Assembly: GCA_951406725.2 (NCBI GenBank)
Contig: OX597817.1
Span: 18,910,001-18,974,000, forward strand
From: Octopus vulgaris
Lineage: Eukaryota
DNA length: 64,000 nt
Direction of reading: 5' to 3'
Positions 3,043 through 56,387 of the stretch are shown here, one piece after another (the first letter of the stretch is position 1; each line of letters begins with the position of its first letter). The notes under the pieces are model-generated. The model did not search any database. It was not told the origin of the DNA and was given only the letters and a program-made list of their open reading frames with translations. Position numbers and translations under genes: made by a program.

Positions 3043-3319
3043 AACAACCAAAACAAAACAGCTCAGAAACACAAGACACACTCTTTATAATAAATATACG
3101 ATAACATAAACAACCACCACAAAATGTACTCTAATGGCCGGATACCCGACACAATTCACATTACACACATACAGCATACAATACAAACTTTAATACAACA
3201 AAATAGTGCAACCAGTCCCCATAATAAAACAAACAGACACAATACAATACCGATGAGAGTTTGCAATCCCCACCCACCAAAACACACACACACAAACAAT
3301 GCTGCACACCTCAGCAGCA

Positions 3320-3885
3320 CTCCGCAAGAATGATCCATTGGGAGTTCTGTAGAGATTACAGCCGACACAGAGCAAAGAAGTGGCATGACCAAATCCAAGA
3401 AGGAGTAACCGAGAATGAGGACAGTAAAATCCTGTGGGATGCAATGATTTATTGTGACCATCAGATCACACATCGAAAACCTGACATTGTTCTGGTTAAC
3501 AAGAAAGAAAATACATGCATGATATTCGACATGGCGTATCCCAGTAACAATAGAAATAAAGAGAAAGAAGTAAAACTGAGCAACTACGACGATTTAAAGT
3601 GGGAAACACGAAGGTTGTGAGCAATGAAGAGAGAGGACGTAATACCAGTAATGACTGACTCGCTTGTAAGTATCAGCACTCAGCTACCAACATGGCTCAA
3701 AAAGATCGGTACAAATATAAAGACAGAACACCTACAAAAATCCTCATTGCTTGGAACTGTAAAAGTTCTACACCGGGTTCTTGACGCATGATCAATAAAC
3801 AAGTGTCACCTTTGTCTGCTGACTGTCGACAGCTGACACTTTCCATCATACCCAGCGAAATAAGCTGAGAGTTTTCATCAAATAA
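3320..3885 (+). mobile_element. RLE LINE 3' fragment (endonuclease domain plus 3' UTR)
   Basis: ORF 3261..3620 contains IHWEFC..KKWHD..KILWD..HRKPDIVLV..CMIFDMAYP (PD-D/ExK RLE). It continues past a stop to HLQKSSLLGTVKVLHRVLDA* (~3791), then a UTR. Confidence 0.9.
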
Positions 3886-15944: not shown

Positions 15945-16260
15945 AATAAATAAAATATATGCATACATACAAACATATATGTACGTACCTACATCTACAT
16001 GTACATATACATGCATATATAAATATATACGTAAGTACAGGACACCACAATTAGACGCAGAACTCAACGAGAAACGAAAACGGGAAAAAACAAGCATGGA
16101 ACAAACCATTTTTTCCAACAGAAAAACAGAGTACAAGACAAACTACACAAGGAAAAATCCCCTTCACCAGCTGTCCCTAGTTCGACTCTAGCGTGTTTCG
16201 AAGGTAAGACAGAACACGACTCGTCGAAACTAGCCCTTCCTGCGAGAGAATTAAAATAAA
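15945..16260 (-). mobile_element. Unclassified repeat, possibly a Penelope-like terminal segment
   Basis: 15945-16170 is the reverse complement of ~40225-40440 (TATGTACGTACCTAC, CAGGACAC, CAAGGAAAA.TCCCCTTC). Confidence 0.6.
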
Positions 16261-20616: not shown

Positions 20617-20756
20617 TATATGTATGTGTCTTTATACACATACATATGTATATATAGTGTGCATATTGCAGTTCTATATTTAAGAGATGAGAAATTATGT
20701 ACATTATTTACATTATTTACGATTGACGGATTTTTGTCCTCATCTTGTTTGTTGTT

Positions 20757-20802
20757 AACACAACGTTTCGGCTGATATACCCTCCAGCCTTCATCAGGTG
20801 TC
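20757..20802 (-). ncRNA. Minimal type-I hammerhead ribozyme motif (loopless palindromic helix III)
   Basis: Minus strand GACAC-CTGATGA-A-GGCTG(GAGGGTATAT)CAGCC-GAAAC-GTT-GTGTT. Confidence 0.75.
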
Positions 20803-20863
20803 TTGGGGAAATTTCGAACCTGGGTTCTCATTCCTAAGGTATTTTCCGTTGTTGTTGTTGTTG

Positions 20864-20918
<55 letters not shown>

Positions 20919-21022
20919 CATTCAGATCACTGCCTGGAATCGAACTCGGAATCTTGGGGTTAGTTGCCTGCGCTTCTAACCACTACGCCGTATGTCCACG
21001 GGCATATGGTGTCGTGGTCTGG

Positions 21023-21055
<33 letters not shown>

Positions 21056-21101
21056 TCGAAAATACATTAGGAATGAGAACCCAGGTTCGAAATTACCCCA
21101 A

Positions 21102-21150
21102 GACACCTGATGAAATCTGGAGGGTATAATATCAGCCGAAACGTTGTGTT
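21102..21150 (+). ncRNA. Second copy of the same hammerhead motif (helix II partly mutated)
   Basis: GACAC-CTGATGA-AATCTG...CAGCC-GAAAC-GTT-GTGTT. Confidence 0.65.
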
Positions 21151-21853
21151 AACAACAAACAAGACGAGGACAAATATCTGTCAATTGTAAATAATGTAAA
21201 TAAGAGTGTGCATATAATTTATATATATTGATACACACATATGCACTCTCACACATACGCGCACATATGCATATGCACACGCCTACGAACACACACACAC
21301 ACACACGTATTGCCATATAGGCATGAGCAAAGCGTGAATAAATGCGAAGTGATAAATTTTTTTACATGGAAATTTACAGGTAGAGGCAAGCAAATAATTG
21401 AAAATTATGAAATGAAAGAGAGAGACAGAGAGACAGAGAGAGAGAGAGGGGGGAGAGAGAGGGAGAGAGAGAGAAAGGCAGGTAGAAGGAAAAGGACAAA
21501 TGTGTGTAAGGATGTAAAGTGTGAAAGCATGAAAGAAATGGAAACAGACATCAATCAAGAAACAAAAAGGTAAAGAAACTATTTCTATTCTCAATCAAAA
21601 ATTAATTTTGAATTGATGTTTCATTGTGATTGACACTTTAACTATTGCGTTCCTTAATTCCTATATATTTAATTTCCGTTTGAGTTTGATGTTTCTGGTC
21701 TAGATTAACACCATTAGCGGAATCGGAACATACGCTTTTTGTATATTTTAAAGCAAAAGCCTATAGCTGCCGTCGTTAAGCCGGTACATAAAAGATATAC
21801 CAGCTTAAAATCTTGACTGAAGACATTATATTTTAACTCAGATTTTATTGATA

Positions 21854-22545: not shown

Positions 22546-22713
22546 GGAAGCACTCCGTCGGTTACGACGACGAGGGTTCCGGTTGATCCGAATCAACGGA
22601 ACAGCCTGCTCGTGAAATTAACGTGTAAGTGGCTGAGCACTCCACAGACACGTGTACCCTTAACGTAGTTCTCGGGATATTCAGCGTGACACAGAGAGTC
22701 ACAGAGAGACAAG
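22546..22713 (-). mobile_element. Family-R SINE 3' fragment
   Basis: Near-identical to 33195-33356. Confidence 0.9.
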
Positions 22714-23229: not shown

Positions 23230-24513
23230 CCTAGACACAGACGAAAATGTCTCATATGAAGGAACTGTGAATAAAGATAGAGTGACCCGAGAATATTACA
23301 TCAGGCTTAGGAAAATATGACAGAATTCTCCTTTTACAACAAAACAATATCTCATAATGCATTTACAGAACAAGCGCCCATCCCAACATTTGAGATGCTT
23401 GATTGATCTGCAGAAGTAATCCACTCCATAGATATCAAAACCCACAAAATCCTGATATCAACTGGGGACTTCCACAGAAACAGTGATGGTGACAGGCACT
23501 ACTTAAGAAGAAATGGAGGTGGTAGAGGCCTGAGTTCAGTGCAGACAGCCTTCGAATGCCATATATTATCACTCAGGGAGCACCTGCTAAGCAACAGCAG
23601 CAAAAATATATATATATATCAATGCAGTGCTGAAGAGTGAAGTGAGCAACATTGTACTACTTGGCAGTGAACTCCTCAAGAAACACTCTCTTCCTGATGA
23701 TCTCCTATACAGATCCATAACAGCTGGGCTCTCTTAACGTAGAGAAGACCTTGATGGAAGGCACTCAGCATATAAGAAAAGACCATGCATGGGTATGTTG
23801 CCCGGAAGATTGAAGAAGATAGAATTGACACAACGTGCAGCCTCTCTTGGACACAAGACCACTATATCACATCACACTTTGAAGGCTATACGCTTGCAAT
23901 CCAGGAACAGGAGATTGCCACAAAGTACATGGTGTCATGTTTCTTTTGAAGACATTTTACATTTGATTAACAGCTGTCCTAAAATATCATCACGGTTCTA
24001 CCTCCCTATGCGGCACGATCTTGTTGTAAAAACAATTTACAATGCCATCCGCAGAAAAGACTATCCTGAAATAAAGTTATAAAATCCATATGTTATGGAA
24101 TACATTCATAAACACCAATTCAAGGAATATTCGTGGAGAATTCACATCAAAACGTCTGTCAAATATAAGCATAACAGGCCGTATATTGTTGTTTGGGAGA
24201 GAGGGGCAAAGGTATGTACGATCATAGGGGTCAGCTGTCCTGCAGATATAAATATCTCTTTGAAAATCAAAGAAAATGAGGATATCTATAGACAACAGCT
24301 TCGAAACCCACAGCTTTCATATCCAGACTATGAATTCATATTCATACCACTAATAATTGGAGCACTAGGCATTTGTAAGTAAATGCTTAAAGGAGAATCT
24401 GGATAAACTGGGATTTTCAGAAAGAGAAATTGACGGGCTAATTTGCACATTAAAAGTCCAAACTGTGAATGGAATAGTAAAAATATGCAATACTTTTTTT
24501 AGTTCCAAATGTG
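23230..24513 (+). mobile_element. Decayed RLE LINE 3' half (distinct subfamily)
   Basis: VNKDRVTREYYIRLRKI, RHYLRRNGGGRGL, HLINSCPKISSRFYLPMRHD, KHNRPYIVVW..IIGVSCPAD, FIPLIIGALG. Confidence 0.85.
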
Positions 24514-30664: not shown

Positions 30665-31077
30665 AGGTGCAGGAGTGGCTGTGTGGTAAGTAGCTTGCTA
30701 ACCAACCACATGGTTCCAGGTTCAGTCCCACTGCATGGCACCTTGGGCAAGTGTCTTCTACTATAGCCTCGGGCCGACCAATGCCTTGTGAGTGGATTTG
30801 GTAGACGGAAACTGAAAGAAGACCGTCGTATATATGTATATATATATATATGTGTGTGTGTTTGTGTGTCTGTGTTTGTCCCCCTAGCATTGCTTGACAA
30901 CCGATGCTGGTGTGTTTATGTCCCCGTTACTTAGCGGTTCGGCAAAAGAGACCGATAGAATAAGTACTGGGCTTACAAAAAAATAAGTCCCGGGGTCGAG
31001 TTGCTCGATTAAAGGCGGTGCTCCAGCATGGCCGCAGTCAAATGACTGAAACAAGCAAAGGAGAGTAAAAGAGAGAG
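30665..31077 (+). mobile_element. Family-C SINE, full length
   Basis: AGGTGCAGGAGTGGCTGTGTGGTAAG head, GGTTCAGTCCC B-box, CCTTGGGCAAGTG, tail GACTGAAACAAG..GAGTAAAAGAG. Confidence 0.92.
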
Positions 31078-32012: not shown

Positions 32013-32391
32013 TACTCTTTTACTTGTTTCAGTCATTTGATTACGGCCATGCTGGAGCACCGCCTTTAGTCGAGCAAATCGACCCCAGGACTTATTCTAT
32101 CGGTCTCTTTTGCCGAACCGCTAAGTGACGGGGACGTAAACACACCAGCATCAGTTGTCAAGCAATGCTAGGGGAACAAACACAGACACACACACACACA
32201 CACACACGCACATATATATATAGATACATATATACGAGAGGCTTCTTTCAGTTTCCGTCTACCAAATCCACTCACAAGGCATTGGTCGGCCCGGGGCTAT
32301 AGCAGAAGACACTTGCCCAAGATGCCACGCAGTGGGACTGAACCCGGAACCATGTAGTTGGTTAGCAAGCTACTTACCACACAGCCACTCC
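32013..32391 (-). mobile_element. Family-C SINE
   Basis: Reverse complement of 30665-31077 with a small internal deletion. Confidence 0.92.
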
Positions 32392-33194: not shown

Positions 33195-33568
33195 GGAAGC
33201 ACTCCGTCGGTTACGACGACGAGGGTTCCGGTTGATCCGAATCAACGGAACAGCCTGCTCGTGAAATTAACGTGTAAGTGGCTGAGCACTCCACAGACAC
33301 GTGTACCCTTAACGTAGTTCTCGGGGATATTCAGCGTGACACAGAGAGTGACAAGGCCGGCCCTTTGGAATACAAGGTACAACAGGAAGTAAGAGTGAAA
33401 GTTGTGGTGAAAGAGTACAGCAGGGATCACCACCATCCCCTGTCGGAGCATCGTGGAACTTTAGGTGTTTTCGCTCAATAAACACTCACAACGCCCGGTC
33501 TGGGAATCGAAACCGCGATCCTATGACCGCGAGTCCGCTGCCCTAACCACTGGGCCATTGCGCCTCCA
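33195..33568 (-). mobile_element. tRNA(Arg-like)-headed SINE, family R, with 11-bp TSD
   Basis: Reverse complement of 37568-37949; TCTGTACATAT at 33184-33194 and 33569-33579. Confidence 0.92.
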
Positions 33569-34789: not shown

Positions 34790-36090
34790 CTTTTGCTATG
34801 TCTGTACATTTTTGTCTGAATATTTTTTTATCATACCTTTCCTATGATAGGAATTGTGTCTGTTTTTAGAATCCACAGTCGCGTTATCTCTATTTCCAGA
34901 TTTTTTTTTATTTTGATAGTTTCTCCGTTTCTTTTAGAGAAACATTGCCATCTGTTGCTATTGATGCATTGATTAGGAAGCATTTTTTCTTGGCGATCTC
35001 TGATAACTATATCTAGCGTATTGGCCTTAATTTCTGTATCTCTGTGTAGTGGCATATCCCAGATTATGGTTTCTTTTTTATTTTGTGTGACCTGTTCTTG
35101 CGTGTGTCTATACAATCTGTTGCTATTCCATGGTGTTGGCATAGCTTCCAGTGTATATATGTATATAGGTTCCAACTCTGTCTTGCCTGTGAATATATTC
35201 CTTCTTAGCCAGGACTGGGCAGCCAGAGACAATATGATTTATTGTTTCTTCTGCATCCCCACATATTCTTCAATTACTTTCTTTTCCTTACATGATTTTG
35301 GTAATTTCTGGTGGGAAGGCTTTGATCTTGTGCTGCAATTAAAAAATCCCCCAGTCGCTGTTTTGAATCCTAAGTTTCTCAGCTATTGTTGGGATTTTGC
35401 TTTGCCTGTTTCTTTTCTGATTAGTTTAACCCAGTGGATGGAAGCACTCCGTCGGTTACGACAACGAGGGTTCCGGTTGATCCGAATCAACGGAACAGCC
35501 TACTCGTGAAATTAACGTGTAAGTGGCTGAGCACTCCACAGACACGCGTACCCTTAACGTAGTTCTCGGGGATATTCAGCGTGACACAGAGAGTGTCAAG
35601 GCCGGCCTTTTGAAATACAGGTACAACAGAAACAGGAAGTAAGAGTGAGAGAAAGTTGTGGTGAAAGAGTACAACAGGGATCACCACCATCCCCTGCCGG
35701 AGCAGTATTTACCATGAAGGAGCTTTTCTTGCCATCGTTTTATCATTATCCGTTGCTGTTCCAGTTTTGGTTTCCATTTCAGTTGTCTTACATGTTTCGT
35801 TGATTCTTCTTTTTCTTCATAGTTCTTAGGTGGTATGACTTGTTTTTTTTTGTATTTGTCAGTTTCCTTATTGAATGGAAACAGTTTTTTTTGTTTTGTT
35901 CTGGTTTTGTGGCTATTTGTATTTGTATTTGTATTGCTTCCGAAGTAGTTCTATGGTGGTTATTCTGTAATAGTTTTCTAGCTGTAGAAGCCCTCTACCA
36001 AATTCGATACGTTGTATATATAACTTTTGTATGTCAGATTTTGGGTGGTGCATCCTAACTCCTGTCATTACGTTACTTATTTTCTTGTCT
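34790..36090 (-). mobile_element. Decayed RLE LINE, interrupted by a family-R SINE
   Basis: ORF track: MHHPKSDIQKLYIQRIEFGRGLLQLENYYRITTI and ETIIWDMPLHRDTEIKANTLDIVIRD..LEIEITRLW..IPIIG. Confidence 0.88.
35440..35703 (-). mobile_element. Family-R SINE, 5'-truncated
   Basis: Matches 37690-37949. Confidence 0.9.
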
Positions 36091-36767: not shown

Positions 36768-37567
36768 CTGCCAATATTATCCCTATGAACATTTCCAATA
36801 GTATTATAAATTCTAGCTGTCGTTTAATCTACTGTGAAGAATTTATTTTCCACAATCTTCATCACAATTTTGTAATTTCACTTCTAGTAAGCATATGCGT
36901 CTTGCATGCTGGCTGTAAATGTATGACAATAACAATCTGTATATGTGCATCATACTCTTTTACGCATTGGCACGTTCACATTCTTGTAAGTTTTAATTTT
37001 ACGTTGTTACAATACTGTCATGTTTCGTTAATATTAAAATCTTTTCATAATTTTGAATTCTGTATTTTATACAGCAATATGTTGTTTTTTTTAATTTATA
37101 ATTTTGTATTTTTGTGATTTTATGTTTCTATATCTTTATATATATCCATGATTATTGAATACTTTTTATCTTTTTTGCATGACTGTAAAATGCAAATATG
37201 CAATTTCGTAATTTTGCATTCTGAAAGTCTAACTTCCCTTATTTTAAAATTATTTTAATTTTTATATAATTTCTTCATATAACGTATTATAATTTTTGCA
37301 TATTTGCATATTCATAAATTTTGATTATACATGCACGTTTGTGCCTGTGTATATGTATCTGTGTACATTAGTGTGCGTTTGTGTAAGTATGCATGTGTAT
37401 GTGCATAGGTGAGCACGTATTCTTGTACATGTGTATGGGGGCGAATCCATTTATGAAAATGCAAACGTGTATAACATCCTCGCAGTAGTAATTCTATAAT
37501 TAAATACAAACATACGTACCTACGCACTATCTTAACGTTATTTCTACAGGTACTCTATATATCATAT

Positions 37568-37949
37568 GGTGGAGGCGCAATGGCCCAGTGGTTAGGGCAG
37601 CGGACTCGCAGTCGTAGGATCGCGGTTTCGATTCCCAGACCGGGCGTTGTGAGTGTTTATTGAGCGAAAACACCTAAAGCTCCACGAGGCTCCGGCAGGG
37701 ATGGTGGTGATCCCTGCTGTACTCTTTCACCACAACTTTCTCTCACTCTTACTTCCTGTTTCTGTTGTACCTGTATTTCAAAGGGCCGGCTTTGTCACTC
37801 TCTGTGTCACGTTGAATATCCCTGAGAACTACGTTAAGGGTACACGTGTCTGTGGAGTGCTCAGCCACTTACACGTTAATTTCACGAGCAGGCTTTCCGT
37901 TGATTCGGATCAACCGGCACCCTTGTAGAGTAACCGACGGAGTGCTTCC
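37568..37949 (+). mobile_element. Family-R SINE, full length, with 10-bp TSD
   Basis: A-box TGGCCCAGTGG, anticodon-like arm GACTCGCAGTC, B-box GGTTTCGATTCCC; TATATCATAT at 37558-37567 and 37950-37959. Confidence 0.93.
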
Positions 37950-38345
37950 TATATCATATAACCAGCATTAATTTTTGCTACAACGTTTTGTATCGAGACG
38001 TCAGATGTAAACAATGTGATCGAAGACAAAAATGGATAATGAGCGTATATACTATACTTCCCTTCGACGCAGTACGACGTGTTACTGACTTATAAAATCG
38101 TTTAGTATACTTTATAGTATATTATGTTCGCTTTACGAAGTACCACGTACCTACAAATCCTTAATATGCACTTACCACACAGCGCAGGAGTGGCTGTGTG
38201 GTAAGTAGCTTGCTAACCAACCACATGGTCCCGGGTTCAGTCCCACTGCATGGCACCTTGGGCAAGTGTCTTCTACTATAGCCTCGGGCCGACCAAAGCC
38301 TTGTGAGTGGATTTGGTAGACGGAAACTGAAAGAAGCCTGTCGTA

Positions 38346-38389
<44 letters not shown>

Positions 38390-38592
38390 AAGTAGATAAA
38401 TGAATTATCTTATTACGGATTATTCAAAAGATAACCGACACCTGGGTAGCAAAAATCACAACAGAAAAAGCACGGTTGAGGTTACGACCATGGGGCCTAA
38501 AATCCGTGCCTTAGTACGGAAATTTGAAGTTTTATATATTTAGTGTAGGAAGAAATGGAGCTGAACGAAGATTTAACAAAATTCCTTTTATT

Positions 38593-38678
38593 ATTTTCTA
38601 CATATGTTTCAAAGGCTGCAAAGTCCCTAATTCGGATTAAATAAGGAGTCCATTTTGCAGCCTTCTCTTCAGGAAAAT
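38593..38678 (-). ncRNA. Type-I hammerhead ribozyme motif with long helix II
   Basis: Minus strand ATTTTC-CTGAAGA-GAAGGCTGCAAA...TTTGCAGCCTTT-GAA-ACATATGT-A-GAAAAT. Confidence 0.8.
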
Positions 38679-38874
38679 CCAGGAACTTAATTCTTCAACA
38701 AAATGTTAACCGGATTTTGACCTTGAATTATCTCAACGGACTTTCTCGTCGGCTTTCAACCAGCCTGGCGTCAACGCATATTGATAGACAGTTTGTGCCA
38801 TTTATTCCATGGGCTCCTCGTGAGCGTTTGTCGAAAAGCTCGCTGTGCATTTTGTTGGAGAATTAAGTTCCTGG

Positions 38875-38960
38875 ATTTTCCTGAAGAGAAGGCTGCAAAA
38901 TGGACTCCTTATTCAATCCGAATTAGGGACTTTGCTGCCTTTGAAACATATGTAGAAAAT
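38875..38960 (+). ncRNA. Type-I hammerhead ribozyme motif (inverted partner)
   Basis: Same motif as 38593-38678, with one helix II mismatch (TTTGCTGCC). Confidence 0.78.
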
Positions 38961-39010
38961 AATAAAAAGGAATTTTGTTAAATCTTCGTTCAGCTCCATT
39001 TCTTCCTACA

Positions 39011-39076
<66 letters not shown>

Positions 39077-39569
39077 CGTGTGTATATGTTTGTGTGTCTG
39101 TGTTTGTTCCTCTAGCATTGCTTGACAACCGATGCTGGTGTGTTTACGTCCCCGTAACTTAGCGGTTCGGCAAAAGAGACCGATAGAATAACTACTGGGC
39201 TTACAAAGAATAAGTCCTGGGGTCGATTTGCTCGACTAAAGGCGATGCTCCAGCATGGCCGCAGTCAAATGACTGAAACAAGTAAAAGATAATAAAAGAG
39301 AAAAAAGAGAGAATCATACAAGCATGTATTTGTGTATATAAACACACACATATTGTAAGAGTATTGTATCAGTGTATACGTGTATGTAAAATAATGCCCG
39401 TTTGTAAAGTGGTGTGCTCATCTGTACAAATGTGTAACGCATGTTTTTGCGTGCACATATGTATATATCTGCAAGTACGTGTATGCATATGCTGGAATGT
39501 GAGTGCGAACAAAACACAAAACAACACAACACCCATACACACATGTACAAATATGAAGTGTGAAGATCC

Positions 39570-40076: not shown

Positions 40077-40130
<54 letters not shown>

Positions 40131-40134
<4 letters not shown>

Positions 40135-40445
40135 AATCGATAAATGAATAAAACATATGCATATATAGATACATATATGTACGTACCTACCTCTACATGT
40201 ATATATACATACATATATGGGCGACTGAAGAAGGGGAATTTTCCTTGTTTTGTATGTCCTGTACTCTATTTTTTCGTTGTTTAAGAAAAAATATCCATTT
40301 CCTTCGTTTTGTGTTTGTTTTCGTTTCTCATTGTATTCGACGTTTTTTGTGTCCTGTACCCATATATGCATGTATATATACATGTAGAGGTAGGTACGTA
40401 CATATATGTATGTATATATGCATATGTTTTATTTATTTATTAATT
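40131..40445. repeat. Inverted-repeat element related to 15945-16170
   Basis: 40131-40221 is the reverse complement of ~40359-40445 (GTACGTACCTACCTCTACATG). Confidence 0.75.
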
Positions 40446-40513
40446 CATTATATGACGGAACGCACGCATCCATTTCTAAGTAAGATTGTACTTAATATAT
40501 ATATATATATATA

Positions 40514-42035: not shown

Positions 42036-42268
42036 GGAGTAAACACATAAATGGGAAACAAGGTGGAAAAAAGAGTACTCAAATACCAGTGGTAGAGTAA
42101 TATGCTTTATTTAAAGCAGCAGAAAATTCAACAAAACCTGTTACTCTGAGTTTTCCGTTGCCGTTCATCGGACAGTTTTTGCTAGATTCTAGCAAAAACT
42201 GTCCGTTGAACGGCAACAGGAAACTCAGAGTAACAGATTTTGTTGAATTTTCTGCTGCTTTAAATAAA
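42034..42268. mobile_element. Palindromic element (81-bp arms, 42106-42268) carrying degenerate CCGAUGA hammerheads
   Basis: Symmetry axis at 42187; the two arms together give CTGT-CCGATGA-..-GAA-ACTCAGAGT-A-ACAG; TA tracts on both sides. Confidence 0.7.
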
Positions 42269-49753: not shown

Positions 49754-52274
49754 GGTCACCTCATCGATAAACTATTCAGGGACATAATATTTGTACAATA
49801 TATTTGGATGTCGAGTCAATGAGGGGGAGAGCCGTTTTTAACCAAACTAAATTCGCATGTAGTTATTCGAGATAAGATGTAAAAAAAAAAAAAAAACTCT
49901 TTAAATTTAACAACTTACGGTCCATGTTTGATTATGCTATAGAAAATTTGCTTTCATTGTCATGAAGTAACGGTGCTGCTGTCAGAATACGAACTACCGG
50001 TATTCACGGTTAGAATCAAATTAACTATCAACTCGACCAGCTTCAATTATCGTTACGGAGGAGAGGCTGGTTAAAATCTAGTGTTTAAAATCTACAAATT
50101 TTTCTTTATTATTTTGCTTTCATTATTCTACGTAGTAAATCGAAAATGCTAAAAACACACCATCCTGTTTCCTTTCATATTGTAAAATCTTATTGTTTGA
50201 TTTCGATGTCTTAATTAACAGGGTTAAGTGAATTAGCCATAAGTGAATAAATAACCAAATAGAAAACTGAAAGGAAAATAATCAACATACACGTGATATT
50301 CATTCCTGATTAAAGCTCCAAATTTTTTTTAATAATACTTGTTATTTATTTAAATAGTAAAATACGTTTAAAACTTTTGTTTGGAGTCTGAGACATGACA
50401 GGAACTTAATTTCGAGTTACCAATCATGATGACATCGAGTGGAAGAATCGATCTTTCAGATACATTGTCGGGTCAAAGGTTCGTGCATGTATTTAATGAT
50501 TTTTAACAGCTGTTATATTGTGATTCAAGCTACACTGATCGGAGGGTGGCATGGGATGCTAATAACGCCTGCCAAGCTACGTGGAAGCCTTTTAATCTGA
50601 AGTGAGTCACTTTATAATTTGACTATGGTGTCAGCCAGCTTGCCTCTAGGTGATGTTCGATTTTTGGAAGGAACGAAAGCAAAATTAAAATTTCACATGA
50701 CTTTGCTATAGCAGGTCAAAAGTACAGTACTCCGATACACTGAAGTGGTGAATGCAGGTTTATCATATAAATTTGTAGGTTTGATATATTGTTGCTTTTG
50801 TGTTGTTGGTTGTTTTTCAGTAATCTTGGTCACCTGTTAATAATATAACAACATAACGATTTACAGTCTTCAATCTTAAACTAGATTACTCCGTCTTTAT
50901 TTAGTTATTGTCCGCGCTGTTCTCGGTTTAGCTATGAACGAGCAAACCTATCAGCACAGACATTCCATCCGTGACTATTTCATCTCATTTTCAGGTATAG
51001 TGTATCCAGAAACACTTTATTTGATATATTTTGTTTCTCGAGACGTCAGATTGTCACTTGCAAACGATTTACAACGACTTTATAATATGCTTCTTTGTTT
51101 TTATCTTTTAAGTATTAGGTACTGAAGCGTACAGATGACCAATAAGATGCCGACGACCGCTTTGTTCAAAGCCTCCCTGGACCTCAAGTGGCCTGAACTC
51201 TTTACATGAACACCACCCTGTACTTAACTCCATGTCCCCCTACATGGCCTTGCTATTTGCTTTTGAGCCAAATTAACTAACTAACTAACTAACTAACTAA
51301 TTTGATACGATAGCAGAGAAAGGGCACAGAGTTTCGTAACCTCTGATTACGACTATTTTATTTTTTCTGCAGCTAGGGTTATTTTACTCAGTCTTTATAT
51401 CTTAATACATCTGTAACAGAGTATGGACAACTCTTGCATCATACTGAAATAAGACGATCGTAAATTATCAAGCCAATTGCTTAATGATAACAAATCTGTT
51501 GATCCGGTATTTCCCATTATAATACCATTACTTAAACGTCTCCATAGATTAATTCTCACCTAATATTTAACCGTCCAACAACCTAAATACAAATAAGCAG
51601 AGTAAATCGACACAACTCAATCTTGTACATAGAAAAACAATACAAATAGTGTTAATTAGTATGGATCACTATGTTCAGATCTGGCTGCGAGAAATGATAA
51701 CTGCGATGGAAATTTATCATGTACAAAGTCTGGATTTTAGTTTCATCGATTTCATCGACAACACTAAGGATTTCGAGGTTTAATGAAATGAATTAATGAA
51801 TTTCCATATTACCATAGAGCTTCTATGTATGACTTCTACGCATGTTGAAGCCGAACACAGGAGCATTTCAATTTAGAATGATATACGTGGGTGAATGCTG
51901 ATAAAAAGGAACAAATTTTAGCGACAATAATTCTTTCTGACACAGGCACAAGGCTAGAAACTTGAGTGAAAGGTGTTACTAGTTACATGACTAGTACTTT
52001 ACTTTACTGACTCTGGAAGGTAAAATAAAAGGTAAAGTTGGTCGCGTTGGGATATGAACTCAGATTTCAGTTAGTCCGAATATATATCTGAACCACTTTA
52101 TCCAACGTCATTTCTATTTAACCATTTAAAAAAATCAACCATCCTCCAGCATAATTCCATTAATAAGTCAGGGCATGGAAAAACACACAATCACTGCAGG
52201 TTTAAAATACATGTGGGAAAACTAGGACAAACAAAACGTATGAATAAAATGAAATGAAATAAATTGCATATAGT

Positions 52275-52805
52275 TAACTGATCTTCACTGACTGAAAGTG
52301 ATATATTCATATTTTGAATTAGTATAAAAGATGGGAGGTAGCAAATATTCTGCTCAGTACCACTAATTTGCTTGTCAGTTGCTTTACCTTCACTAGTTGA
52401 GTATTCTCCTTAGAGGCTGACGATATGTGCATCTCTGATCATGAGTAGGAGTGGTGAGGGTGCATCGTAACCATGTTCTCGGTGGAATGCTTGAGAGTTT
52501 GAATAAGTCAACTCAGGAAACATGTGTGTTTCGTTCATCATCCTTAAACAAATCTTATTCAGGGTTCTTTTGAGCAGTATGGGCTACTCGACGTGAAGGA
52601 AATTCTAACTGGCCCCTCCTAAACAGATTTGTTATCATTAAGAAATTGGCTTGATAACTTACCATCGTCTTATTTCAGTATGATGCAAGAGTTGTCCATA
52701 CTCCTCCTAAAAGCTTGTACTGATATGAGACACCATGTCGCGTAGGCTTCGTATGTTGCATTCCAGTATCACTTTGACGGCATGCATTGCTCTCTCACTC
52801 ACTCA
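52275..52805 (+). mobile_element. Diverged copy of the 36150-36708 element, followed by (TAA)n
   Basis: Shared blocks listed for 36150; carries an 82-bp foreign insert. Confidence 0.75.
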
Positions 52806-53951: not shown

Positions 53952-56387
53952 CATCTCTTAAATATAGAACTGTAAGAGCAGAAGAGATTCTATAAAGAAA
54001 TAAATGAAGCGTGTACAGATGAAAAGTTGTTACTAGATAACATTGAAAATCAAAAGTTTTGGAGTGACATCTGGAGCAAAGACAAGGAGCACAAGAAGGA
54101 TGCTGAATGGTTGCAAGAACTGAAACAAACAGTAGTCTGTCCAAAACAGGCAGAACTAGTCATTTCAGTAAAGGAAGTGAAGGAAACCAGCAAAAAAAGG
54201 CAACTGTTAGGCCTCGGGACCAGATGGAGATCAAGGCTACTGGATCAAAAGATTTGGTGAATAACATGGACGAATAGCTGCACAACTCACTAAGTGATAA
54301 TACCATGGTATTGGGTAGCACAGTACTGTGCTTGAAAAACATCGGAAAAGGCAGGCAATAAGTTAGACAATTACACGCCGATATCCTGTTTGTCACAAAT
54401 GTGGAAGTTCTTGACTGGAATACTCGCAGAGTTAATGTACGAGCATCTGGAAAAATTGAATCCTGTCCCATGAGCAGAAGGGTTGCAAGCGTAGGTGCAG
54501 ATGTACCAAGGATCAACACCTGATAGACAAAACTGTTCTTAGTTACTGCAAGGGGAGGAAAAGTAACTTAGCCATGTCATAGATCGACTATAGTAAGGCG
54601 TACGATACGATCCCACATTCTTGGATAACGGAGTGTATGAACCTGTTCGGTATTGCATCGAATTTTGAGTGATTGCTTGGAAAAAAGATGACGAATTGGG
54701 GGACCTGACAGCATATGGAAGACGTTTAGGGACAGTAGAAATTAGGAGGGGCGTCTTCCAAGAGGACCGCCTGTCCCCACTGATCTGTGCTTGATACCAC
54801 TGATTCTGAGGAAACCAAAAGCTGGGTATGTATTCAAAAGCCGCCAGCGAAAAGTCAACCATTTGTTATTCATAGATGATCTCAAACTTTATGGTAAAGA
54901 TGAAGCACAAATCAGTTCCCTCGTTGATACAGTGTATACCTTCAATAATGATATCAGAATGGAGTTCTAACTGAAAAAGTGTCGTGTGTTAGTCTTGAAG
55001 AGAGGCATAATAAAATATAAGGACGGGCTAACGATACCGTCGGGGACGGTTATGAAGCAGATAGAGTAGACGGACTAGAAGTACTTGGGGATGTTGGAAA
55101 TGGATAAAGTGATGGAGAAAAAAATGACAGAAAAATTTAAGGTTGAGTACTTGCGCAGACTGAGACTGATCCTAAAGTCGAAATTAAATGGACAAAATAA
55201 GATCAAAGCTATCAACACCTGGGCGGTTTTACTCCTTAGCTATCGAGCTCGGTTAACCGCAAGGATAGTAGACGAACTAAACAGCTTAGAGAGAAAGTCA
55301 AGGAAGTTGCTAACAAGATATGTGTCACTCCACACAAAACGTGACACAGGCAGACTGTATGTACCAAGAAAAAGAGGGGAAGAGGACTTATTGAATGCGA
55401 AGACAGCATTAGATCAGAAGAAAACAACATAGCATGGTATATGAAAAATGCCAGAGAACAGCTATTATTAAAAGTAGGAAGGCCAGGTTTGTTTAGGATG
55501 AAAGTTTGCAAAGATAAAGCACTATACATTAAATTTAAAACGAACTAAATTGAAAATAGGTGGGTAAAGAAAAGAATGCACGGTCAATTTCATAGGGATG
55601 TTGAAGATAAGACAAACAGAGAAGAAAGATAGCTGCGGATGACTAAAAGTGATTTAAAACCGAAAACGAAGGCTCTACTCAGCGCAGCCCATGGGCAAGC
55701 ACTAAGAACAAACTACACAAAATACAGAATAGACAACACACCGGAAAGTGATAAGTGCAGAATCTGTGGACAAAACGGTGAAACCGTATGGCATATTACC
55801 AGCCAATGTACGCCAATAGCCCAGAAGGAATATAAGAGATGCCACGGAAACATAGCCAGGCTTGTCCATTGCACACTCTGTAACAAGTATGAACTTGACA
55901 GAGGAAAAAAAAAATGGTACGACCGCAAAACTGAAGGCATCGTCGAAAATAGAATTGCAAAGATACTATGGGATTTTATGATTCAGTGCGACCATGAGAT
56001 AGAGAATAGGAAGCCGGACATAGTGTTAATTGAGAAATGAAGCAAACTATGCTGCATCATAGATATAGCATGCCCAGCTAAGAACAAGGTATGCGATAAG
56101 GAAGAAAGAAAAGTCGATAGATATGACAGGTTAGCTTGGGAAGTTAAGCAGTTTTGGTCGATGAAAAAGGTAGCAGTAGTACCAATAAACAGTGAGCAAA
56201 ATCTTGTGAAGTACGTGTAACAAATAGGGGCTGCAAAAAGGGTGGAACACTTGCAGAAAACTGCAGTGATTGGAACCGCTCGAATACTCCGGAAGGTGCT
56301 CGAAAAATAAAAGGTTTTATCTTAGTTCACTGGTAGTGAACATCCGACACTCTAGTACATCTCCATCGTTAGAAGCTGTACAAAGGT

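Follow-up and report, generated by a model that had tools for sequence, protein, structure and literature searches.

The window analysed here is a 64,000-nucleotide stretch of Octopus vulgaris DNA (contig OX597817.1, positions 18,910,001 to 18,974,000, forward strand), and all coordinates below are counted from its first letter. At 38385-39013 it holds an inverted repeat with a hammerhead motif in each arm, lying in the TA tract of a SINE. This locus raises the question of which event leaves two ribozymes on opposite strands of one short insert, and whether the twin layout has any role of its own. The observations described below indicate that a multi-copy Penelope-like element (PLE) very probably inserted into the (TA)n tract of the SINE and left an inverted, 5'-truncated partner beside itself, in which case the twin ribozymes are incidental.

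Anatomy of the insert and its host SINE

The host element at 38184-39300, which we take to be an octopus SINE, is broken at its TA tract. Its halves (38184-38345 and 39079-39300) are collinear with four unbroken copies in the window, indicating that the insert is the younger element; in our reading the 5' half carries a tRNA-like head. The insert itself (38385-39013) is flanked by two (TA)n tracts (38344-38384 and 39014-39075). The arms (38540-38705 and 38848-39013/14) are 97.6% identical over 166-167 nt (3 substitutions, 1 indel) and enclose a spacer of 142 nt (38706-38847). The insert is asymmetric, as 155 nt (38385-38539) lie outside the left arm. A preliminary description of the locus, made from its letters, had given arms of about 166 bp around a spacer of about 142 bp and had placed a young insert in the TA tract of an older SINE; both statements were confirmed. 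The features are as follows.

38184-38345, plus strand: 5' half of the host SINE, 81-97% identical to the four other copies in the window
38344-38384, no strand: left (TA)n tract, the putative insertion target, exceeding in length that of the intact copy at 30669
38385-38539, minus strand: 3' extension ('tail') of the element, in the inverted copy only, non-coding; multi-copy in four sequencing runs, with stops in all element-sense frames
38540-38705, minus strand: left arm, an inverted 5'-truncated copy of the element's 3' end
38593-38678, minus strand: left type I hammerhead (helix I of 6 bp, core 38672-38666, helix II domain 38665-38611, palindromic helix III, GUA at 38601-38599)
38702-38705, no strand: inversion junction with 2-4 nt of microhomology; other copies align from 38702 or 38704 and their upstream letters differ
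38706-38847, plus strand: spacer, the upstream part of the forward copy, probably non-coding; multi-copy, with frameshifting indels among relatives
38848-39013, plus strand: right arm, formed by the forward copy's 3' end; it stops at an internal ATATA run continuous with the TA tract
38875-38960, plus strand: right type I hammerhead (core 38881-38887, helix II domain 38888-38942, GUA at 38952-38954)
39014-39075, no strand: right (TA)n tract
39076-39300, plus strand: 3' half of the host SINE, 71-92% identical to other copies

An ORF check and a Pfam search of five frames of the insert found no reverse transcriptase (RT) or GIY-YIG endonuclease frame; Pfam returned a single weak match, below the cut-off, and nothing above the cut-off for the spacer. 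No tRNA was detected by ARAGORN, and the spacer and the extension folded no better than shuffled sequences. With neither an RT nor a GIY-YIG frame left, assignment to the PLEs rests on anatomy. In the proposed mechanism, a PLE, possibly of the Hydra clade, would have entered the (TA)n tract of the SINE; the forward piece (38702-39013) would start at the internal ATATA run, and the inverted piece (38705-38385) about 156 nt further 3', the two being joined through 2-4 nt of microhomology. Both pieces reach the hammerhead of the pseudo-LTR, which accounts for twin ribozymes pointing outward. The one-sided extension of 155-156 nt far exceeds the 30-40 nt usual for PLE tails, those of Hydra-clade elements (PMC8557442) included.

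Such scars are known. An inverted 5'-truncated partner together with a one-sided tail has been described for PLEs (Craig et al. 2021, PMC8557442), and in the same source Penelope-13_HM is listed with hammerheads on both strands and has a 5'-truncated copy in inverted orientation. Cervera and de la Pena (2014, PMC4209133) reported pairs of minimal hammerheads on opposite strands, separated by 100-700 bp, and a 5'-truncated PLE whose other strand carries a second hammerhead. The twin layout is thus the usual scar of Penelope insertion. In itself it carries little weight; it is already in print and recurs in the window, where two unrelated inverted hammerhead-like pairs were found (20704-21203, minimal, and 42106-42268, degenerate).

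The first of these pairs (20704-20846 and 21058-21203) consists of outward-pointing minimal hammerheads of an unrelated family, with ATT/CAA tracts and a tRNA-like segment between them; the hammerhead at -20797 is intact, with a G-C closing pair, and helix II of its partner is damaged. The second folds back on itself, with arms of 81 nt, a spacer of 1 nt and a (TA)n tract alongside; each arm shows a degenerate likeness to a Hydra-type hammerhead (CUGU/ACAG in helix I, a palindromic helix III and a changed core). Another inverted repeat adjoining a TA tract (40127-40221 and 40359-40453, arms of 95 nt, spacer of 137 nt) has a 74% identical relative at 15945-16165 and a CTGAAGA word in its spacer; no hammerhead fold was found in it. 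A further repeat (51419-51500 and 52622-52703, 82-nt arms, 96% complementary, 1121 nt apart) is a possible non-autonomous DNA transposon. By eye, frames resembling coding fragments of an RTE-like LINE were seen at 3228-3620, 23738-24082, 34831-35238 and 55079-56040. A second SINE family lies immediately upstream of the locus (37565-37950), with relatives at 33195-33568, 35440-35703 and 22546-22706, and two copies of the host SINE family (30669-31073 and 32016-32391) are inverted about 1 kb apart, so that a long duplex is possible. On the minus strand of the extension, a pyrimidine-rich run ending in CAG (38430-38460) resembles a splice acceptor, and an intron was considered; 5' introns are known in PLEs (Craig et al. 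2021, PMC8557442).

The hammerhead motifs and their long helix II

CUGAAGA cores are located at +38881 and -38672. Each arm reads, in order, a 6-bp helix I, CUGAAGA, a 55-nt helix II domain, GAAA, ACAUAUGU and the cleavage-site A, where ACAUAUGU is the palindrome of helix III and the predicted cleavage-site A falls at 38954 (plus) or 38599 (minus). The full hammerhead descriptor matched twice in the window and not once in each of 30 dinucleotide shuffles, and the CUGAAGA/GAAA core and GUA site claimed earlier for each arm were recovered in both. The motif is of type I and ends in helix I, with 6 bp in helix I, 11-12 bp in helix II and, within the monomer, 2 bp in helix III. A 12-bp helix II had been assigned to both arms. 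This applied to the left arm (12 contiguous pairs) but not to the right, where 11 of 12 positions pair and a U.U mismatch occurs at 38894/38936; at 38936 relatives have A or G. With z -4.06 the left helix II domain was markedly stable, and 1 of 500 shuffles equalled it. Helix II is closed by G.U, not the usual G-C (positions 10.1/11.1), and C was present at 11.1 in the loose end of one relative. The Rfam hammerhead models gave no match at the gathering score or at E values up to 10 apart from TA-repeat and chance matches, most likely because of the long helix II insertion.

The PLE hammerheads reported by Cervera and de la Pena (2014, PMC4209133) share with the present ones type I architecture, a CUGANGA/GAAA core, a short helix I and a small palindromic helix III with a predicted dimer. 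They differ in helix II, which has 3-8 bp and loops of 3-9 nt in the 56 animal motifs listed there, compared with 12 bp and a structured apex of 31 nt here, and in an unpaired base after position 9 that is usual in those motifs and missing here in the 12-bp register. Stem II has 3-7 bp in the 26 animal rows of Craig et al. (PMC8557442). Helix II is therefore unusually long, as the preliminary description had proposed, and exceeds the published animal PLE lists compared. The G.U closing pair is less exceptional, occurring in about 9 of the 56 motifs listed by Cervera and de la Pena (PMC4209133; our own count) and also in Penelope-13_HM and -17_HM (PMC8557442). The nearest precedent for the long helix is PLE-X1_sMoe of spike moss (Craig et al. 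2021, File S2), whose helix II domain of about 52 nt combines 9 bp with a loop of 34 nt; unlike the octopus element, this is a plant, endonuclease-less element targeted to 28S rDNA, and it is marked there as deviating from the canonical structure. Literature searches found no paper on natural hammerheads with a long stem II, and none on the pair G10.1-U11.1. In all, the locus is largely an ordinary 5'-inverted PLE insertion, in which the long helix II stands out as a modestly new form.

Several features recall the Hydra clade. Penelope-13_HM, Hydra-1_Obim and Hydra-2_Amil have in common with the octopus insert a (TA)n target, a hammerhead near the 3' end and an AC..GU palindromic helix III, often cut after A (PMC8557442). 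Craig et al. (2021, PMC8557442) give a (TA)n preference for 26 of the 27 Hydra-clade families; insertion into (TA)n was seen at this locus and in TA-flanked loose ends of other copies, and since it also occurs in many Naiads it is not diagnostic of Hydra. Three short words of the tail were found by eye in the same order in Hydra-2_Amil (PMC8557442), against a background of 4 in 12603 stretches of the window. By six probe words, not one of the consensus sequences of Craig et al. (PMC8557442) matched, four words being absent and two standing in unrelated places. The (TA)n target, the form of helix III and the three tail words hint at the Hydra clade, and this likeness, noticed post hoc in sequence, is only a lead.

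Variants in other copies were unevenly distributed over the domain. Among the 40 of 86 variant rows listed, 5 of the 31 apex positions vary, 2 of the 24 in the outer helix, and a single position across core, helix I and helix III combined. Such a distribution fits selection, as judged from these incomplete rows. A majority variant at 38891 (62-96% of depth) breaks, on its own, the base of helix II and helix I of the dimer in the model; among the same 40 of 86 rows no compensating change was seen. One contig of run X1 omits 32 nt of the helix II domain (38909-38940), leaving a 4-bp helix of ordinary minimal-hammerhead size.

A multi-copy family with variable inversion joints

The family was surveyed with contigs from 4 of 24 listed runs, aligned on the insert. 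The contigs covering the insert numbered 1178, 1425, 288 and 72 per run, filling 30 of 30 bins in three runs and 29 in the fourth, and 20 sequence holders from nine studies are listed for the family. The extension and the spacer, named earlier as probes for a parent Penelope, proved multi-copy in all four runs but yielded no RT frame. Other copies with the long helix II do occur: relatives of about 80% identity are gapless over it. Those with 17-24 differences align without gaps over ribozyme and tail, and three of them end at 38677, the edge of helix I, with unlike sequence beyond. This identifies ribozyme plus tail as the conserved block and the long helix II as a family trait.

Contigs pass from the extension into the arm, with high depth on both sides; among the 32 of about 3000 records listed, no strict 31-letter bridge spans this boundary (best 29-30) and no contig bridges the inner junction of the locus at 38705/38706. 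Two element ends, at about 38533 and about 38388, are both TA-flanked in other copies. Other copies also continue upstream of 38702-38704 with different letters, indicating that the spacer is the upstream part of the forward copy and no dedicated loop.

At least 17 joints between an inverted and a forward piece were listed, situated at varying points, after two rows internal to one arm had been excluded. The self-complementary overlap ranges from 0 to 155 nt across these 17 joints, and just one yields two whole ribozymes. Eight different joints occurred in one run, more than alleles of a single locus would give in an unpooled sample. A PLE trait, 5' truncation of variable extent accompanied by an inverted truncated copy, is thus present both here and in the joints of other copies, and together with the anatomy it supports the Penelope-type origin put forward earlier.

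The same joints bear on two other explanations. A DNA transposon or MITE, with the arms as terminal inverted repeats, would account for inverted arms, a short spacer and a TA target, but the left arm has 155 nt beyond it and so is no terminus, arm length differs between copies over the range of overlaps just given, the spacer extends further upstream in other family members, and the hammerhead sits inside the arms; this is the least probable reading of all. Nearly as improbable is an inversion after insertion, through template switching in replication, or an artefact of assembly. Long inverted repeats are unstable, and the lack of a bridge at 38705/38706 among the contigs listed would agree with such an origin. 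Against it, the arms differ at four places, unlike an assembly fold-back, and eight different joints of the same type occur in one run. Moreover, the left copy contains family sequence missing from the right copy, so that the left was not copied from the right.

A further possibility, rather unlikely, is that the copies derive mainly from a short non-autonomous, retrozyme-like RNA (from about 38800 through ribozyme and extension, about 420 nt) mobilised by a PLE protein, of which the locus would be a slightly longer read. It would refine the Penelope insertion proposed above and does not exclude it. Nine of the 17 listed forward pieces start within 38796-38823 (scan p 0.0008 against a uniform distribution), and this cluster may mark the 5' end of such an RNA. 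The summed depth also increases near 38800, the insert has no coding frame, and a 2026 preprint derives animal retrozymes from PLE pseudo-LTRs (bioRxiv 10.64898/2026.07.22.740005). On the other hand, family sequence extends upstream of 38702 in loose ends, the list of joints comprises the best supported rows, depth is no copy number, and the head-to-tail tandem joint that is the hallmark of retrozymes is absent among the rows listed. The non-LTR retrozymes of the same preprint (bioRxiv 10.64898/2026.07.22.740005) share with the family a non-coding sequence, a type I hammerhead and kinship with PLE pseudo-LTRs; their head-to-tail tandems permit dimer cleavage, whereas the copies here are inverted. 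A retrozyme proper was rejected for the locus, as its copies are inverted and no tandem array of the unit was found in the window.

The Poseidon element PAc of Anolis (PMC11167929) is comparable in having two internal start sites of reverse transcription that define an optional tail, and AT-rich targets. It differs in having a short tail and a frame that begins within stem II, while the octopus insert has no through-frame and ends 156 nt apart. Its hammerhead is protein-assisted and dispensable for insertion in vitro (PMC11167929).

Outside these runs the family was not recovered. Pattern scans gave no match in viral contigs and one chance match in prokaryote genomes, and in metagenomes no match and then 119 loci matching only around an 18-letter pattern. 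The literature on hammerheads in octopus and other cephalopods did not yield the family, which subscription papers or the Repbase and Dfam libraries may hold. In a repeat annotation of Octopus vulgaris from 2026, 31 PLE families are counted as recently active; its main text makes no mention of ribozymes.

Predicted activity and fate of transcripts

In the monomer, the active fold was predicted to make up 1e-2 to 1e-3 of the ensemble. In the homodimer, the unconstrained minimum-energy fold had the double-hammerhead topology in both copies, with an 8-bp helix III, and it was retained with 9 of 10 single variants, including a loop variant at 38950. The energy gained by dimerisation (-8.4 kcal/mol) does not exceed that of shuffles, 77 of 200 of which reach the same value. 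Minimal PLE hammerheads were inactive in vitro as monomers. As the monomer here is also predicted to fold poorly, a negative monomer assay would not refute the ribozyme. In the parent element, the folding model suggests that the ribozyme would most likely cut after GUA as a dimer, formed through the 8-nt palindrome of helix III and swapped strands of helix I, perhaps with help from a protein of the element, as fold and literature together suggest. Inverted copies within one transcript are unable to partner in this way. The locus had been called the best-preserved candidate for activity, which is doubtful given the rarity of the active monomer fold and the intact minimal hammerhead elsewhere in the window (-20797).

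On either strand, transcription passes the antisense arm before it reaches the ribozyme, which leaves no window for cleavage. In the model of a growing plus-strand transcript, the arm duplex had a probability of 1.0, against 0.0 for helix II, whatever the length tested. For the whole insert the predicted folding energy is about -335 kcal/mol, and the active form makes up about 1e-80 of the predicted ensemble. According to the model, masking would be a permanent block and no switch, and a free ribozyme would come only from a transcript starting inside the insert, for which a partner molecule would still be needed. It had been proposed that hairpin formation between ribozyme and antisense could mask cleavage; this agrees with the prediction for a read-through transcript, while the variable joints speak against any designed or regulatory role. 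An antisense-gated switch, with the inverted arm kept to toggle cleavage, could invoke the loss of the ribozyme fold in the modelled hairpin and the near-identity of the arms (97.6%). Such a switch is highly improbable, since the antisense arm comes first on both strands with full duplex probability at all lengths tested, a gap of about 110 kcal/mol cannot be toggled, the arm varies from 0 to 155 nt over the 17 joints listed, and both arms carry private changes, as decay would give.

The copy at this locus would thus be a dead fragment, in whose read-through transcript a 166-bp duplex would block the ribozyme, and its likeliest effect, if it is transcribed at all, would be double-stranded RNA. 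The listed runs include none on record as RNA; the RNA status of run X7, in which relatives are present, is a guess. In Drosophila, siRNAs matched inverted regions of rearranged Penelope copies. Inverted PLE ends make long double-stranded RNA, which, where such scars are abundant in a genome, could feed silencing or A-to-I editing.

A bolder interpretation, which we regard as improbable though not negligible, is that the family represents an undescribed animal PLE lineage in which the 55-nt helix II is a selected module, a second priming site lies 156 nt downstream, and a short non-autonomous RNA begins at about 38800. Such a module might serve as a docking site for a protein of the element, or make a tertiary contact that speeds cleavage of dimer or monomer. 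If helix II is selected, it would extend the known shapes of animal hammerheads to forms missed by short-stem descriptors and Rfam models, and would offer a handle on the poor unaided cutting by PLE ribozymes. If this interpretation is true, the lineage would be a natural test case for what PLE hammerheads do.
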